The notes: generated by a model not told the origin, from the sequence alone. DNA of 64,000 nucleotides from Propioniciclava sp. (GCA_047973315.1 JBKEBV010000102.1:1102-65101), one strand, 5' to 3'; shown: positions 59,432 through 64,000, counted from the stretch's first letter. Numbers and translations: made by a program.

Positions 59432-59457
59432 TCCCCAGGTGTGCACAAACCTGGGGA
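59432..59457 (+). terminator. Hairpin after glgX
   Basis: TCCCCAGGT-gtgcacaa-ACCTGGGGA, a perfect 9-bp stem. Confidence 0.45.
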
Positions 59458-59477
59458 TAACTCTGCGGTCGGCGTCC

Positions 59478-59921
59478 ATGCCTGACCTGATCATCCATCC
59501 GGGCCCGGGAGTCCCCGACGGCATGGTGGTGCCGTCATCGGCGGTGACCGAGCAGTTCTCCCGCGCCTCGGGGCCCGGCGGGCAGGGGGTCAACACCACC
59601 GACTCCCGCGTCCAGGTATCGGTCGACCTGGCCGCCCTTGAGCTCACCACCGCCCAGCGCGACCGGGTGAACCGGGCGCTGGCAGGGCGGATCCGGAACG
59701 GCCGCCTGCGGGTCGCCGCCGCGGAACACCGCTCCCAGCGCCTCAACCGCCGTGCCGCCCGGGACCGGCTGGGAGCGCTGCTGCGGGCCGCGCTCGCGCC
59801 TCCCCCACCGGTCCGCCGCTCGACCGGGCCCTCCCCTCGCGCGGTGGAGCGGCGGCTCGCGGCGAAACGCGCCCGCGCCCTGGTCAAGGCACGACGTTCC
59901 CGGCCCACGGCCAGCGACTGA
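59478..59921 (+). CDS. arfB: Alternative ribosome-rescue peptidyl-tRNA hydrolase
   Basis: SGPGGQGVNTTDSRV GGQ motif and a basic C-terminal tail. Confidence 0.85.
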   Translation: MPDLIIHPGPGVPDGMVVPSSAVTEQFSRASGPGGQGVNTTDSRVQVSVDLAALELTTAQRDRVNRALAGRIRNGRLRVAAAEHRSQRLNRRAARDRLGALLRAALAPPPPVRRSTGPSPRAVERRLAAKRARALVKARRSRPTASD

Positions 59922-59968
59922 GCCGGTCAGCCCTCGCCAAGGCGCGCCGGGTGCGCTAGAAACGAACC

Positions 59969-60463
59969 ATGCGAGCACTCACCCGGGACCAGGTCTTGGG
60001 CAGCTTCGTCAACGCCACCGACGCCGAGCAGGATCGACTGGTCCTGCCCTGGTGGATCGACGCGACGCTGTGGGACTCGCTCGACTACCTGGGGTGGGCC
60101 GATCCGGCCGATGCCCGCCGGAGCTATCTGGTGGCTGACACATCGTTCGGTCTGATCGGCATTGTGCTCCGGCTACCTACCGGCGGGCCGGGGCAGCGCC
60201 GCACACTCTGCAATCTGTGCTGCACCCAGCACCGTCGGCAGGGTGCTCTGCTCATGGTGGCCCGTCGCAGCGGCCGGGCCGGCCGGAACCACAACACCGT
60301 GGGCACCACCATCTGTGCCGATCTCGCCTGCTCGCTCTACGTGCGGGGACTGCGACGGTCCGACGGCGGCGGCGCGCTGCCCGAAACGCTCGACCCGGGC
60401 GGACGGGTGGCGAGACTGCAGCGGAACCTCGAGGACTTTCTCGGCCGCGTTCTCGTAGACTAG
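59969..60463 (+). CDS. FBP (EF-G-binding-protein-like) domain protein
   Basis: C-terminal treble-clef Cys pattern CNLCC...CADLAC. 164 aa. Confidence 0.7.
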   Translation: MRALTRDQVLGSFVNATDAEQDRLVLPWWIDATLWDSLDYLGWADPADARRSYLVADTSFGLIGIVLRLPTGGPGQRRTLCNLCCTQHRRQGALLMVARRSGRAGRNHNTVGTTICADLACSLYVRGLRRSDGGGALPETLDPGGRVARLQRNLEDFLGRVLVD

Positions 60464-60679
60464 CCGACCCTGCACGCCGCTCGGCGGGTGCGCGTCGGCA
60501 CGCCCCGCCGAACGGCATGCAGACCGGACAGGGTGGGTTATTCGCTCCGGATGATCATACTTTCGTTGGATGGCTCGCACCTTTGACGGAGGGAATCGGC
60601 ACGTTTGTCGCATCCGCCGCGACCCATTTTGTCCTTAAAGTGGCTGTATAGGTCAACTCAACATTGGAGGAAACAAAAA

Positions 60680-60802
60680 ATGAAGCGCCTTGCAGTTGTG
60701 TTCGCAACGTCGATCATGGTGCTCCCGGTCGCGGCGATTCCCGTCACGCCGGACGCCTACCCGCGCTGGATCTGCCGGATCCTGCCGATCGTCTGCCCCT
60801 GA
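60680..60802 (+). CDS. 40-aa secreted-peptide candidate (signal peptide plus a two-Cys, Pro-rich C-terminal segment of about 21 aa)
   Basis: GGAGG (60666-60670) lies 9 nt before the ATG. MKRLAVVFATSIMVLPVAA|IPVTPDAYPRWICRILPIVCP. High third-position G+C despite the AT-rich surroundings. A perfect terminator follows 24 nt downstream. Confidence 0.5.
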   Translation: MKRLAVVFATSIMVLPVAAIPVTPDAYPRWICRILPIVCP

Positions 60803-60826
60803 CCCCCGGGCCTCAACGGCCCTCAC

Positions 60827-60865
60827 GACAACCGCCCCCATGCCTCAGGCATGGGGGCGGTTGTC
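60827..60865. terminator. Perfect 18-bp stem-loop between convergent small genes
   Basis: GACAACCGCCCCCATGCC-tca-GGCATGGGGGCGGTTGTC. Confidence 0.7.
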
Positions 60866-61005
60866 ATGGGTGGACCACTGGGGAGGAGTGGGAGGGGAGG
60901 ACTGCTCTCCAGGCGGGACTGGCGTCGAGCGCCCAAGGTAGCAACCGCAGCAGAAGACGTGAGGATGTGCTTGGAGTCGCTGACAGTGGCCTGCGCCGGA
61001 TGTCG

Positions 61006-61236
61006 TCAGCGACGCCGGGTCGCCTCAGATGATTGACCGGGGATCGTGGGCTGCTTGCTGTGAGGGGGACCCAACACCGCTAACGCAAGACCCACGATCA
61101 ACCCGGTCAACGCGCCCACTGCCCCAAAGGTCCGGGCATCACCGACTAAAATGCCGACAAGGGCGCCTACCGTAATCCCGGCCACGACCGCTATGACCAC
61201 AATGAGATCCGGTGCACCCCCGACATGACGTTTCAT
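61006..61236 (-). CDS. Small two-TM, Gly-rich membrane protein
   Basis: MKRHVGGAPDLIVVIAVVAGITVGALVGILVGDARTFGAVGALTGLIVGLALAVLG... Codon usage is atypical for the window (att, tta, ata, ctt). An alternative GTG start is at 61257. Confidence 0.5.
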   Translation of the reverse strand: MKRHVGGAPDLIVVIAVVAGITVGALVGILVGDARTFGAVGALTGLIVGLALAVLGPPHSKQPTIPGQSSEATRRR

Positions 61237-61370
61237 CTCGGCGTGGGGAGTGGACACGTGATAAGCGTAGAGGGCCGAACCCCCGGGTGGTATCAGGAAA
61301 AAGTAGAGTATTCGCCCCGACGAAAGTACGACTTTGGCGCTCGAGCGGGCCGCGATGCCACACTGGCACC

Positions 61371-62522
61371 ATGTCCCGCGACCGATCCGACACCGGACGG
61401 CTGCCCTGGTGGTTGCGCCGGCTCGGACGCGGGGGTGTCCTCGAGGCGACCGTCGCCCTGCTGATCTTCCTGTTCTCCGAGATCAACTACGGGCCTCCCC
61501 CGATCACCTGGCCCCAGTACATCGCCGACGCAGCCCTGGCGCTGTTCACCGGCGCCAGCGGTCGCTGGCCGCGGATCGGCGGCATCGGTGGTGGCATTGC
61601 GCTGATGCTGGTGGGGGTGCTGCATGGCGACACGTTGTCGCTGGTGATCTTCTGCACGTTCATCCCGGTGGTGTCGACCGGCGCCCACGGTTACGCCCGG
61701 CTCCGGGACTCGCTCACCGTCTGGTACACCGCGGTCCTGATGCTGATCGCCGCAGCCACCTCGAGCGACGCGACCGAGGCTGTCCAGTCAGGGCTGGTCC
61801 TGCTGGCGCTCATGTGTGGCACGTGGGCGACGGGCCGGACGATCGGCCGACTCCGTGAGGAGAGTTCCACCCACAGTGAGCGGCAGGTGGAGGCACTGCG
61901 CGCCCAGCGACGGACGATCGCCCGGGACCTGCACGACACCGTCGCCTACGCCACCACGACCATGATCATGCGGGCTGAGCAGATCAAGCTCCGCTCCCGG
62001 GACGCCGAACTGAACGCCGACCTCGAGTTCATCATCACCACCGGGCGACGCTCGGTCCGGGACCTTCGCGGCATGCTGGAAGCGCTGCGACGCAATGACC
62101 CCTCGTTCGACCTCGCCGCCGACACCCCGTGGCGGATCGTCGAGATCGAGGACGTGCTGGAGAACCAACGGGCCGAGCTGGCGGCCCACGGCCTGACCTT
62201 GGCTGTCACCCGGGACACCAATCTCGACGACCTTCCGGGGTCGGTGCGGGAGACCGCCGCGAAGCTGGTGGTGGAGGCGACCTCCAATATGGTCAAGCAC
62301 GCAGCTCCCGGACCCTGCCGGGTGCTGATCGACCTCGACGGGGACAACCTGGAACTCGTGTTCACCAACAAGATGCGCCTGGGTCAACGGGGGAAGCCGA
62401 ACAACGGTCTCGGACTGCTGGGCGCGGCCGAACGCATCGAGGCGCTCGGCGGGGTCCTGGAGGCGACTCAGGCGTCCGACACGTGGATCCTCAGCGCCCA
62501 GCTGCCTTTGGGGGGAGAATGA
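61371..62522 (+). CDS. Sensor histidine kinase, NarL/DesK-type (HisKA_3) with a membrane-embedded sensor of about 6 TM helices
   Basis: H-box RDLHDTVAYATTTMIMRAEQ and ATPase motifs NMVKHA and NGLGLLGAAERIEALGG. No sizeable extracytoplasmic loop. Confidence 0.85.
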   Translation: MSRDRSDTGRLPWWLRRLGRGGVLEATVALLIFLFSEINYGPPPITWPQYIADAALALFTGASGRWPRIGGIGGGIALMLVGVLHGDTLSLVIFCTFIPVVSTGAHGYARLRDSLTVWYTAVLMLIAAATSSDATEAVQSGLVLLALMCGTWATGRTIGRLREESSTHSERQVEALRAQRRTIARDLHDTVAYATTTMIMRAEQIKLRSRDAELNADLEFIITTGRRSVRDLRGMLEALRRNDPSFDLAADTPWRIVEIEDVLENQRAELAAHGLTLAVTRDTNLDDLPGSVRETAAKLVVEATSNMVKHAAPGPCRVLIDLDGDNLELVFTNKMRLGQRGKPNNGLGLLGAAERIEALGGVLEATQASDTWILSAQLPLGGE

Positions 62523-62526
62523 TGCC

Positions 62527-63186
62527 ATGACCGCGGACGCGATCCCTGTGACGGTCGCCATCGTCGATGATGATGCCATCGTGCGTTCGGCGCTCGCCTC
62601 CTACCTGGAGGCGGGCGGCTTCGACGTCGTCCACCAGGCCACGAACGGGCATGAGGCACTCGCTGCGATCACGCGGGAGCCGGTGGACGTGGTGATCATG
62701 GACGTCCGCATGCCCAAGATGGACGGGATCCGGACGACGGCGGAACTGCGGCGACGTGTTCCCAGGACCAAGATCATCGTCATCACCTCCTTCGACGAGG
62801 ATGAGGCGGTTCGGGACGCGCTGTCGTCGGGGGCCAGTGGCTTCCTCCTCAAGGACACCTCGCCCGGGGGCCTCGCGGACGCGGTACGCACCGTGATGCG
62901 GGGATCCTCGGTCGTCTCGCCCGGTCCGATCACCCGTCTGGTCCAGGTGGTGCCGACCCGCCGGCCCAACGTCGCCCCCGCTGAGGTCGGACTCAGCCCG
63001 CGCGAGGTCCAGATCCTCCAGCTGCTCTGCGAGGCACACACCAACACCGAGATCGCCGCGGCGCTGTGCCTGTCCGAGTCGACGGTCAAGTCCCACATGT
63101 CAGCGATCATGACCAAGCTGCAGGTCTCCTCCCGCCTCAAGGCGGTCGTCCGGGCCCATGAGTTGGGCCTGGTCGAGCGGCTCTGA
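62527..63186 (+). CDS. Response regulator, NarL/LuxR family
   Basis: VAIVDDD, VVIMDVRMPKMDG, and LuxR HTH LSPREVQILQLLCEAHTNTEIAAALCLSESTVKSHM. Confidence 0.9.
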   Translation: MTADAIPVTVAIVDDDAIVRSALASYLEAGGFDVVHQATNGHEALAAITREPVDVVIMDVRMPKMDGIRTTAELRRRVPRTKIIVITSFDEDEAVRDALSSGASGFLLKDTSPGGLADAVRTVMRGSSVVSPGPITRLVQVVPTRRPNVAPAEVGLSPREVQILQLLCEAHTNTEIAAALCLSESTVKSHMSAIMTKLQVSSRLKAVVRAHELGLVERL

Positions 63187-63349: not shown

Positions 63350-64000
63350 GTGGAACGTGACGCGGGACCGACATCGGCGTCGTTCGCCGGTGTCTTGAGC
63401 GAGGCCATTCAGGCCCGGGGTCTGTCGCTGGAGCGGATTCGCGCGCGACTCGAGGCGGCGGGCGTGGCGGTCAGCATCGCCACGCTCAGCTACTGGCAGT
63501 CGGGGCGGTCGCTGCCCACCCGGGCCCGCTCGTACCACACCCTGGTGGAACTGGAGAAGGTCCTCACGCTGGAGGCGGGCCATCTGACCCGCTTCACCCA
63601 CACCGCTGACGGTCGGCGCCGCCATTCGCTCTTCCCCTGGGAGACGGTGCTCCCGGTGGGCGAGGTCGCCTCAGGGATCGTCAATGATCTCGGCATCGAC
63701 ATGCGGGGACAGCTCACCCGTGTCACCATGCAGGACCGCATGGTGATCCGGGCGGACCGCACCGAGAAGATCCAGGTCAGTTCCCTGCTGTGGCGGGCGG
63801 AACGGAACGGGCTTCACCGTTGGCCGCTCGTCGTCGAGCAGGATGCTGACGACCAGACGTCGGTACCGGCGGTGGCGGCCGTCAGCGGCTGCCAGGTGGG
63901 CGAGATCATCGAGGTGCCCGAACGGCATCTGCTCGTGGCCGAGATGCTGGCTCCGCGGCCGTTGCGCCGCGGCGACCATCTGCTGTCCATCTACCGCACG
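63350..64000 (+). CDS. HTH (XRE-like) domain protein, 3' end outside the window
   Basis: The frame is open to the window end and is not in the ORF track because no stop is reached. FAGVLSEAIQARGLSLERIRARLEAAGVAVSIATLSYWQSGRSLP is an HTH. The start is GTG 63350 or GTG 63323. Confidence 0.6.
   Translation, partial: MERDAGPTSASFAGVLSEAIQARGLSLERIRARLEAAGVAVSIATLSYWQSGRSLPTRARSYHTLVELEKVLTLEAGHLTRFTHTADGRRRHSLFPWETVLPVGEVASGIVNDLGIDMRGQLTRVTMQDRMVIRADRTEKIQVSSLLWRAERNGLHRWPLVVEQDADDQTSVPAVAAVSGCQVGEIIEVPERHLLVAEMLAPRPLRRGDHLLSIYRT

Follow-up and report, generated by a model that had tools for sequence, protein, structure and literature searches.

Most of the small proteins known to act on sensor kinases come from a small number of Proteobacteria and Firmicutes, the examples being MgrB, SafA, SaeP and SaeQ, the autoinducing peptides (AIPs) and ComX. 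To our knowledge, few such examples are known from Actinobacteria, and peptide-based cell-cell signalling is poorly documented there. We analyzed a stretch of 64,000 nucleotides from Propioniciclava sp. (GCA_047973315.1 JBKEBV010000102.1:1102-65101), referred to here as the window, in which a 40-codon open reading frame (ORF) for a two-cysteine peptide lies near genes for a protein with two transmembrane segments (2-TM protein), a sensor histidine kinase with six transmembrane (TM) segments, and a NarL-type response regulator. On comparative evidence, these genes form a four-gene module that is conserved in the Propioniciclava/Nigerium group of Propionibacteriaceae, and the peptide is probably a partner of the adjacent membrane sensor kinase, because its gene always lies beside those of the kinase and regulator and has a promoter element in common with the 2-TM gene. 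The system is compact, and every part of it is predicted. Its proteins are a precursor of ~42 aa whose Cys loop is invariant, the 2-TM partner, the 6-TM kinase and the regulator; its predicted DNA elements are two operators and, for each of the three transcription units, a -10 element. The module is carried by two cultured hosts, Propioniciclava soli YIM S02567 and P. sinopodophylli KCTC 33808. The case is also an example of the placing of an orphan small ORF in a regulon by means of conserved cis-elements.

MgrB of Enterobacteriaceae is a protein of 47 aa that belongs to the PhoP regulon and whose periplasmic residues C28 and C39 are essential (PMC8404706, PMC2789325). The peptides described here resemble MgrB in size (40-47 aa), in having N-terminal Lys/Arg residues, one hydrophobic segment and an outside tail of ~20 residues, and in carrying two conserved Cys and a conserved Trp within that tail; in MgrB the Cys are essential and the Trp is important. 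Membership in the regulon of the neighboring regulator, suggested here by a common operator, would be a further likeness. The two do not, however, have any sequence similarity, and the window peptide has no Pfam family at E <= 0.01. MgrB has an uncleaved TM anchor of 20-21 aa, whereas the N-terminus of the present family looks cleavable, and the Cys are separated by ten residues in MgrB but by six here. PhoQ contains a periplasmic sensor domain and has an OmpR-type partner, in contrast to the 6-TM HisKA_3 kinase and NarL-type partner of the module. The mgrB gene is unlinked to phoPQ, whereas the peptide gene is always adjacent to the kinase gene. Finally, the hosts of MgrB belong to a different phylum, and here there is no outer membrane to retain a released peptide. 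In the saePQRS system of Staphylococcus aureus, a constitutive promoter (P3) serves saeRS, a second promoter (P1) is induced by SaeR, and SaeP and SaeQ form a ternary complex with SaeS (PMC5083920). The weak constitutive promoter belongs to the kinase and regulator genes, and the auxiliary proteins reset the kinase (PMC5083920). As in our module, the four sae genes encode an extracytoplasmic auxiliary, a small membrane auxiliary, a kinase without an extracytoplasmic domain, and a regulator, and the auxiliary genes are on a regulator-dependent promoter with two sites, an arrangement that is predicted here. The individual proteins differ, in that SaeP is a lipoprotein of 146 aa and SaeQ a 4-TM protein of 157 aa, neither of them homologous to the proteins of the module, and in that SaeS has two TM segments and SaeR is of the OmpR type. 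The sae genes are also all co-directional, whereas in the window the 2-TM gene is on the opposite strand, converging on the peptide gene and diverging from the kinase gene.

ComQXPA of Bacillus combines a polytopic HisKA_3 kinase and a NarL-type regulator with a small pheromone gene immediately upstream, and the Trp of the pheromone is functionally central. The module is ComQXPA-like by architecture only, that is, in its polytopic HisKA_3 kinase and NarL-type regulator. No gene for a ComQ-like isoprenyl transferase was found in any locus; ComX has neither a Sec signal nor a Cys loop, ComP has more TM segments than the kinase here, and 7 of 41 members of the present family have Phe or Ile instead of the Trp. 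In Agr and class II bacteriocin systems, as in the module, a small peptide gene adjoins the gene for a polytopic kinase with short loops, and in the promoters the regulator boxes are paired at a distance of about two helical turns; a further likeness, to the AIPs, would be a variable tail attached to a hydrophobic macrocycle, the ring being putative here. In contrast to these systems, the kinase is of the HisKA_3 rather than the HPK10 type and the regulator is GerE/NarL rather than LytTR, and the ring would be a disulfide, not a thiolactone as in Agr. No AgrB domain was present among the Pfam annotations listed, the only conserved neighbors being the 2-TM protein, the kinase, the regulator and a protein of ~300 aa. 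There is no double-glycine leader in the peptide family, the N-terminus being of the Sec type, and an ABC/C39 transporter is encoded in no locus. An initial annotation of the window, made from its sequence alone, had described the layout as reminiscent of Agr-like, lantibiotic-sensing or LiaF-LiaSR-like modules. The Agr likeness fails on the missing AgrB and on the types of kinase and regulator, and the lantibiotic likeness on the lack of LanB, LanC or LanM genes and of a conserved Ser/Thr in the peptide core. For LiaF-LiaSR, the kinase scores 28 bits against a Strep_LiaS cut-off of 450 and has six TM segments where LiaS has two, the 2-TM protein has no LiaF-related match, and no homologue of LiaF, LiaH/PspA or LiaX is present. 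The locus does have in common with LiaFSR and MacRS a HisKA_3 kinase with a NarL-type regulator, as well as, by prediction, a small membrane protein as the main local target (LiaI; the MacR targets). The direct targets of MacRS, a NarL-type system of Streptomyces, are membrane proteins and lipoproteins (PMC9739842), and the likeness to it is an analogy of output only. The lack of conserved genes for processing, export or modification around the peptide gene, already pointed out in the initial annotation, was upheld. In the way it works, the module is like three- or four-component systems, yet it belongs to no named one, being neither Agr, lantibiotic, ComQXPA nor LiaF.

The linkage of the peptide gene to the kinase gene was examined in related genomes. 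A kinase-based genome scan yielded nine loci with a kinase identity of 48-58%, and a homologous small ORF was found by tblastn and motif search on the same strand, 0.6-1 kb 5' of the kinase gene, in 7/7 loci that were long enough. The contigs of ten further family members were added to this set, giving 16 independent loci in which the sequence extends 1.2 kb or more past the peptide gene (the window, L003-L009, L013, L015, L018, L020 and L103-L106). In all 16, an orthologous 6-TM HisKA_3 kinase gene begins no more than ~1 kb downstream of the peptide gene, and a NarL-type regulator gene follows the kinase wherever the contig reaches far enough. The 2-TM gene is located between them, convergent to the peptide gene, in 15 of the 16. 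The exception is a lineage (L018/L019) in which the kinase gene begins 117 nt past the peptide gene; on this comparison, the 2-TM gene is lost from the L018 lineage. In L018, positions 410-527 hold the peptide gene, a short hairpin and the kinase gene (probable start GTG 527, with CACACT ahead of it) in direct adjacency. The upstream neighbor is FBP_C in most loci, but genes for aldehyde and alcohol dehydrogenases in L008, nagB/nagA in L020, RF-1 in L104 and MarR in L106; because this neighbor varies, the module genes travel as a unit. A hidden Markov model (HMM) of the peptide matched exactly once in each orthologous locus (E <= 3e-11) and not at all in 80 control loci around distant HisKA_3 kinases, which came from a metagenome scan with the kinase alignment whose patterns (IARDLHDT etc.) are generic to HisKA_3 and whose kinases are 21-33% identical. 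A separate search with an alignment of the kinase sensor domain gave no scoring match among 8000 word candidates. Kinase orthologues lacking a small ORF, which the initial annotation had named as one of the findings that would speak against its proposal, did not appear, every kinase locus of sufficient length that we examined having the ORF. The suggested tie of the peptide to the adjacent two-component system is thus borne out by the co-occurrence, by the joint movement of the genes and by the cis-element common to the peptide and 2-TM genes.

We also considered whether the 40-codon ORF is a gene at all. Its sequence and coordinates, and the spacing of the GGAGG upstream of it, were exact as originally given (Table 1), and its G+C content at third codon positions (GC3) is 0.85, which is host-like in comparison to 0.82-0.89 for its neighbors. 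The ORF is conserved in relatives without the frameshifts that would have counted against it, and its GC3 is 0.76-0.91 in every locus. Analysis of dN/dS on the close relatives L009, L011 and L012 involved too few substitutions, the upstream DNA being equally conserved, and was replaced by an analysis of codon usage at invariant residues over 13 loci. The conserved Pro and the second Cys are encoded by synonymous codons, and hydrophobic positions exchange similar residues. A purine-rich sequence resembling a Shine-Dalgarno (SD) sequence lies 5' of the start in seven other loci with a correctly placed start, and strong GC hairpins are found 3' of the peptide gene in most orthologous loci. The alternative, that the 40 codons are untranslated and that conservation is due to RNA or promoter DNA, could appeal to the shortness of the ORF and to a word-index search with the single peptide, which returned only the query. 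Against it, 36 small homologues keep the frame, the start, the SD-like sequence and the invariant residues at just 23-38% identity, the codons at conserved residues are synonymous, the GC3 holds across loci, and an Rfam search of positions 60000-61600 gave sub-threshold hairpin artefacts only, with no family at threshold. With homologues at the same position in every orthologous locus, the ORF is by these comparisons a real gene, far beyond chance, and the non-coding alternative is effectively refuted, the probability that we would still attach to it being vanishingly small.

The hairpin downstream of the gene was likewise as initially described. Its arms, a perfect stem, span 60827-60844 and 60848-60865 with a loop of 3 nt, beginning 24 nt past the stop codon, and the 81-nt stretch that contains it (60800-60880) folds at -56 kcal/mol, with z = -7.9 relative to shuffled sequences. 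A promoter and terminator scan of the E. coli type, whose consensus is uninformative for a high-GC actinobacterium, returned no promoters and missed the hairpin because it lacks a T-run. Terminators without a U-tract are common in Actinobacteria, and the hairpin could terminate transcription on both strands, for the peptide and 2-TM genes alike.

Homologues of the peptide first surfaced from tblastn and motif searches of the loci of kinase orthologues. A profile built from the peptides of the orthologous loci was then run against 1.84 billion representative proteins, and recovered 36 small relatives of 30-69 aa together with two long repetitive false positives. Scans of Pfam and NCBIfam with the window peptide and three relatives gave no family, in agreement with the earlier statement that no known peptide family was recognized, and the relatives found with the family HMM are unannotated; the few named members are each a "hypothetical protein" from Propioniciclava soli or from metagenome-assembled genomes of Propionibacteriaceae. 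By this criterion, the peptides are a new, unannotated small-protein family. Members are built of M-K/R-x, a hydrophobic stretch, Gly/Pro and small residues, a variable portion of 8-12 residues, a core and a further 0-7 residues, the core having the form [YLFV]-P-x-[WF]-[LFVI]-C-x-[LIW]-[FIL]-P-[IMFV]-[LFI]-C. Both Cys are invariant across the family, so that the two-Cys peptide first described from the window stands, with C-x6-C spacing in 41 members and C-x7-C in two. Among the 41 C-x6-C members the Pro within the loop is invariant, the upstream Pro is present in 40, and the Trp position is occupied by Trp (34), Phe (6) or Ile (1). The loop is probably closed by a disulfide. The window peptide (E = 1.5e-12 against the family HMM) has the core Y-P-R-W-I-C-R-I-L-P-I-V-C, followed by P.

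The N-terminus of the window peptide is signal-peptide-like, consisting of MKR, a hydrophobic segment and P-VAA, with a cleavage-like site at P-V-A-A|I. One or two K/R residues among the first four, followed by an uncharged stretch, are found in 40/40 non-redundant members; in all 40, one or more small-x-small sites also lie past the hydrophobic stretch and ahead of the core, and in 27 of them there is a site of the form [AVST]-x-A. These heuristic features agree throughout the family with the proposed Sec signal peptide and VAA site, and because the short hydrophobic core is followed by Gly/Pro, the N-terminus resembles a TM anchor less than it does a cleavable signal peptide. The putative mature peptides would be 15-30 aa long, typically ~20, with a net charge of -2 to +2. 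One locus (L022) encodes a variant with the core Y-A-P-I-L-C, without the usual P and W, and this may be an orphan copy or one in decay. A ~20-nt gcgttggctgagcttgtcga-like motif occurs several times 3' of the variant gene (L022 912-1353).

The peptide and 2-TM genes have in common a promoter element of ~40 bp, made up of two boxes and overlapping the -35 region of both promoters. In the window, boxes R1 and R2 of the peptide promoter represent the two-box element conserved across loci, and R0 is an extra copy upstream (Table 1). The alignment of peptide promoters gives the consensus ACTTTAGGACGAG, 8-9 nt, GCACyTTyCnCCGATG, 19-20 nt, TAnnnT, the boxes being 21-22 bp apart and the spacing of the TAnnnT from the second box being the same in every peptide-upstream region aligned. 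The corresponding consensus of the 2-TM promoters, present in 11/11 loci, is TACTTTnGTnnGG, 8-9 nt, GCACyTTTnCCCGATG, 19-20 nt, TAnnGT. When an nhmmer model was built from peptide promoters only, its top matches beyond the training loci were 2-TM promoters, those of L015 (1.9e-5), L007 (1.5e-4), L020 (1.6e-3) and L008 (0.018), L007 being outside the training set of the model. The match at the peptide promoter of the window covers 60575-60614/60579-60614. A combined model matched only the two promoter classes, including the 2-TM promoter of the window (61329..61290), and gave nothing further at E < 5 in the 64-kb window or in ~90 kb of other loci. The element was detected at the peptide promoter in 10 of 13 training loci. 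In four held-out loci (L103-L106), it was present at the 2-TM promoter in all four, and at the peptide promoter in full in two, in part in one, and not at all in one.

The simplest inference from these alignments is that the NarL-type regulator binds the two-box element, because it is the sole transcription factor conserved in the module; the [TC]ACyTT cores of the boxes are, we presume, similar to NarL-type half-sites. The overlap with the -35 region is as expected of an activator-dependent promoter. The peptide and 2-TM genes would then be co-regulated and would constitute a local regulon of the regulator. The 2-TM operator also covers the -35 position of the divergent kinase promoter, so that autoregulation of the kinase and regulator genes is possible.

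Table 1. Positions of the predicted features of the module, counted from the first nucleotide of the window
Feature	Coordinates	Strand	Details
Putative operator of the peptide promoter	60557..60615	+	R0 ATACTTTCGTTGGATGG 60557-60573; R1 GCACCTTTGACGGAGGG 60577-60593; R2 GCACGTTTGTCGCATCC 60599-60615
Candidate -10 element of the peptide promoter, TAAAGT (TAnnnT)	60636..60641	+	20 nt past box R2; predicted transcription start near 60648
Shine-Dalgarno sequence GGAGG	60666-60670	+	9 nt ahead of ATG
Peptide gene, 40 aa	60680..60802	+	ATG 60680, TGA 60800-60802; product MKRLAVVFATSIMVLPVAAIPVTPDAYPRWICRILPIVCP
Peptide form for synthesis, oxidized and reduced			IPVTPDAYPRWICRILPIVCP
Hairpin, likely terminator without U-tract	60827..60865	.	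perfect 18-bp GC-rich stem, between the convergent peptide and 2-TM genes
Gly-zipper-like 2-TM hairpin protein	61006..61257	-	83 aa from GTG 61257 or 76 aa from ATG 61236
Candidate -10 element of the 2-TM gene, TACGCT	61264..61269	-	20 nt past box R2, 6 nt before GTG 61257; predicted transcription start near 61257
Putative operator of the 2-TM promoter	61290..61329	-	minus strand GTACTTTCGTCGGGG-N6-TCTACTTTTTCCTGATACC; boxes 61329..61315, 61308..61290
-10-like CACACT	61359..61364	+	6 nt before kinase ATG 61371, no SD; predicted transcription start near 61371
Sensor histidine kinase, 383 aa	61371..62522	+	six TM, no extracytoplasmic domain, HisKA_3 DHp domain
NarL/LuxR-type response regulator, 219 aa	62527..63186	+	Response_reg + GerE

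The kinase matches HisKA_3 in Pfam (E 7.5e-9), and its hydropathy, averaged over the family, has six hydrophobic cores. Basic residues are found at the N-terminus, in the loops at 65-70 and 107-116, and after TM6, a distribution which by the positive-inside rule indicates a predicted topology with both termini inside and three outside loops of ~12 residues or fewer. This is the kinase of about six TM segments without an extracytoplasmic domain that had been proposed, and the gene that follows it was correctly assigned to a NarL-type regulator by its Response_reg and GerE matches. The sensor region has no Pfam or NCBIfam family, and matches of the kinase and regulator to the NCBIfam models LiaS, MadS, MadR and NarL are weak and far below cut-offs. 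A sequence of the form [CG]A[ACG]ACT precedes the kinase start codon by 6-7 nt, with no SD, in 10 of 12 loci checked, as well as ahead of GTG 527 in L018. The kinase-regulator mRNA thus appears, from these start regions, to be leaderless and to have a separate promoter, which is probably basal.

The 2-TM protein has a conserved turn, G-D-A-R-T-F-G-A-V-G-A, and a basic C-terminal tail, and is a hairpin whose ends are probably both in the cytoplasm. Its likeness to Gly-zipper_YMGG is compositional and architectural only, the best orthologue scoring 23.7 bits and the window protein 12.1 bits against a cut-off of 28.9. GTG 61257, 6 nt after the TACGCT -10 element, is a candidate leaderless start, and may be the start of the gene rather than ATG 61236. 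The gene has a leaderless look in the window, L003 and L013 (TAnnnT-N6-7-GTGTCCAC), and in other loci has a leader of 30-40 nt with a clear SD; the mode of translation initiation appears on this basis to differ among orthologues. The atypical codon usage noted for this gene was found again (GC3 of 0.64 in the window, as against 0.875 for the kinase). Across loci its GC3 is 0.62-0.84 compared to 0.87-0.97 for the adjacent kinase, though the gene is conserved and syntenic.

The reading that we favor, tentatively and with somewhat less than even confidence, is that both small proteins are the local regulon of the regulator and that the exported Cys-loop peptide feeds back on the kinase. The kinase and regulator would be made from their own, probably leaderless and basal promoter. 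Phosphorylated regulator would bind the two-box operator at the two promoters and turn on the peptide and 2-TM genes. Sec would export the peptide, whose outside part of ~20 residues would consist of an aromatic Y-P-x-W collar and the hydrophobic C-x6-C loop. The exported peptide, alone or together with the 2-TM protein, would then act back on this kinase at its membrane-embedded sensor, which would otherwise respond to a membrane or envelope condition. This would close a feedback loop, for which we favor a modulatory or negative sign, like those of MgrB on PhoQ, SaeP/SaeQ on SaeS and CpxP on CpxA. We infer the binding of the regulator, the export and oxidation of the peptide, its contact with the kinase and the sign of the loop. 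By analogy with such systems, a feedback or accessory peptide is in keeping with the conservation of the core, with a membrane partner under putative common control and with the logic of two promoters. A structural partner is preferred over a diversifying pheromone because the core is conserved across genera and is not hypervariable.

Several observations weigh against this reading. The N-terminus looks cleavable, with small-x-small sites in every member, and in a host without an outer membrane a cleaved peptide would diffuse away, which would be a better fit to a signal than to a cell-autonomous brake. Mantel tests compared the peptide with the outside loops, the TM segments and the cytoplasmic part of the kinase, for n = 10 loci only; for the mature peptide and the outside loops, r was ~0, which is uninformative in so small a set. 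These loops are the least conserved part of the kinase, whereas the loop of the peptide is highly conserved. At the peptide promoter, the operator was undetectable in L003, L007, L013 and L104 and partial in L105, and control of the peptide by the regulator is therefore not universal. Lastly, the 440 nt of sequence available 3' of the variant peptide gene of L022 contain neither a 2-TM nor a kinase gene.

An alternative is an autoinducer scheme of the three-component quorum-sensing kind, in which a Sec-exported, signal peptidase I-cleaved, disulfide-cyclized peptide of ~17-23 aa would diffuse and activate the 6-TM kinase of the producer and its neighbors, and the regulator would then induce more peptide, as positive feedback, along with the 2-TM protein. 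The n-h-c organization of the precursor and its consistent small-x-small sites are what such a peptide would need; a gene with its own SD and hairpin would suit an abundant monocistronic message, and a putative regulator operator at the peptide's own promoter is the wiring of autoinduction. The peptide receptors AgrC, ComD, PlnB and ComP are likewise polytopic and without an extracytoplasmic domain, as the kinase here is, and ComP is a HisKA_3 kinase with a NarL-type partner regulator and a Trp-containing pheromone. A variable exocyclic tail on a hydrophobic ring is AIP-like, and in L018 the peptide and kinase genes follow one another with nothing between. On the other hand, the core is conserved across genera without diversification into pherotypes, the Mantel test gave no covariation with the outside loops of the kinase, and 4-5 loci lack the operator at the peptide promoter. 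No targets were found beyond the two small proteins, and output genes are absent from the vicinity; the scheme gives the 2-TM protein no role, and HisKA_3/NarL kinases of such type are mostly envelope or membrane sensors (compare the weak NCBIfam similarity to LiaS and MadS). We consider the autoinducer scheme doubtful, though worth serious attention, and the same doubt attaches to the broader notion of an actinobacterial peptide pheromone that lacks dedicated processing and export genes and is read directly by a 6-TM HisKA_3 kinase. We know of no described system with such a combination of pheromone and HisKA_3 features.

If the kinase instead senses through its TM bundle, in the manner of DesK, LiaS and VraS, the small products could be protective, membrane-active effectors of an envelope-stress response, akin to LiaI or the membrane-protein targets of Streptomyces MacRS, and would exert no feedback. 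The common operator, which makes both small genes regulon members, is consistent with this, as are the sub-threshold scores placing the kinase and regulator in a LiaS/MadS/NarL-like group, the Gly-zipper-like membrane hairpin of the 2-TM protein, and the membrane proteins and lipoproteins that are direct targets of MacR in Streptomyces (PMC9739842). A peptide of ~20 aa with a strictly conserved Cys loop would be odd as a protective effector, however, and pure-effector genes of a regulon are seldom so strictly linked to the regulator across genera. The adjacency of peptide and kinase also survives the loss of the 2-TM gene in L018 and changes of flank, which argues for a specific partnership of the two beyond regulon membership, and we regard the effector-only explanation as unlikely. 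Still more improbable in our estimation is a Sec-dependent bacteriocin with the 2-TM protein as its immunity protein, under control of the two-component system and with the bacteriocin perhaps also the inducer, as for nisin. A small peptide, putatively exported and disulfide-bonded, does adjoin a small membrane protein, both co-regulated, and the use of Sec would remove the need for a dedicated transporter; the 2-TM proteins also have a match to Bacteriocin_IIc, but this is far below threshold (E = 0.12 and 8) and probably due to Gly-rich composition. A bacteriocin role is disfavored because the putative mature peptides, near neutral (-2 to +2) and of only 15-30 aa, differ from the cationic class II bacteriocins. 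Moreover, the peptide gene converges with the "immunity" gene and is not co-transcribed with it, L018 keeps the peptide without the 2-TM gene and a producer lacking immunity would be at risk, and the module is a conserved syntenic block of the core genome, not a variable accessory locus. The role of the peptide thus leans to an accessory/feedback function or a signal and away from a bacteriocin.

The base composition and the surroundings of the module were also analyzed. The window has an overall G+C of 0.69, and its closest genomes in the genome scan were those of Propioniciclava, Nigerium and other Propionibacteriaceae. The low-G+C islet that had been seen by eye in this region stands as a measured dip, with a G+C of 0.535 at 60500-60699, but not as an islet: the reduced G+C is restricted to promoter and intergenic DNA and the 2-TM gene. 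The idea of a foreign islet was dropped because both flanks of the block are syntenic with Propioniciclava genomes, and the low-G+C stretch is ordinary promoter DNA with no foreign origin.

Upstream of the module, a gene for an ArfB-type ribosome-rescue hydrolase (NCBIfam equivalog, 113 bits) adjoins that for the FBP_C treble-clef zinc-finger protein (window 59439-60463, plus strand), FBP_C presumably having a FusB-type EF-G-binding fold. Most loci, though not all, have an FBP_C gene directly 5' of the peptide gene. In L013 (298-343) and L014, the peptide start is only ~40 nt past the FBP_C stop, without an operator, and in this lineage the peptide gene may be co-transcribed with FBP_C. A gene for a protein of ~300 aa lies 3' of the regulator gene (window 63350-64000, plus strand, truncated at the window edge; L003 7885-8781). 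Besides the window, 11 other loci have a copy, 55-77% identical to that of P. soli, and the gene is retained also in loci with a different upstream flank. Scans of Pfam and NCBIfam gave no family for the protein, and its gene gave no operator match; it could be a fifth gene of the module or a matter of mere conserved synteny. In some loci, a gene for a THAP4_heme-bd (nitrobindin-like) protein sits ahead of it.

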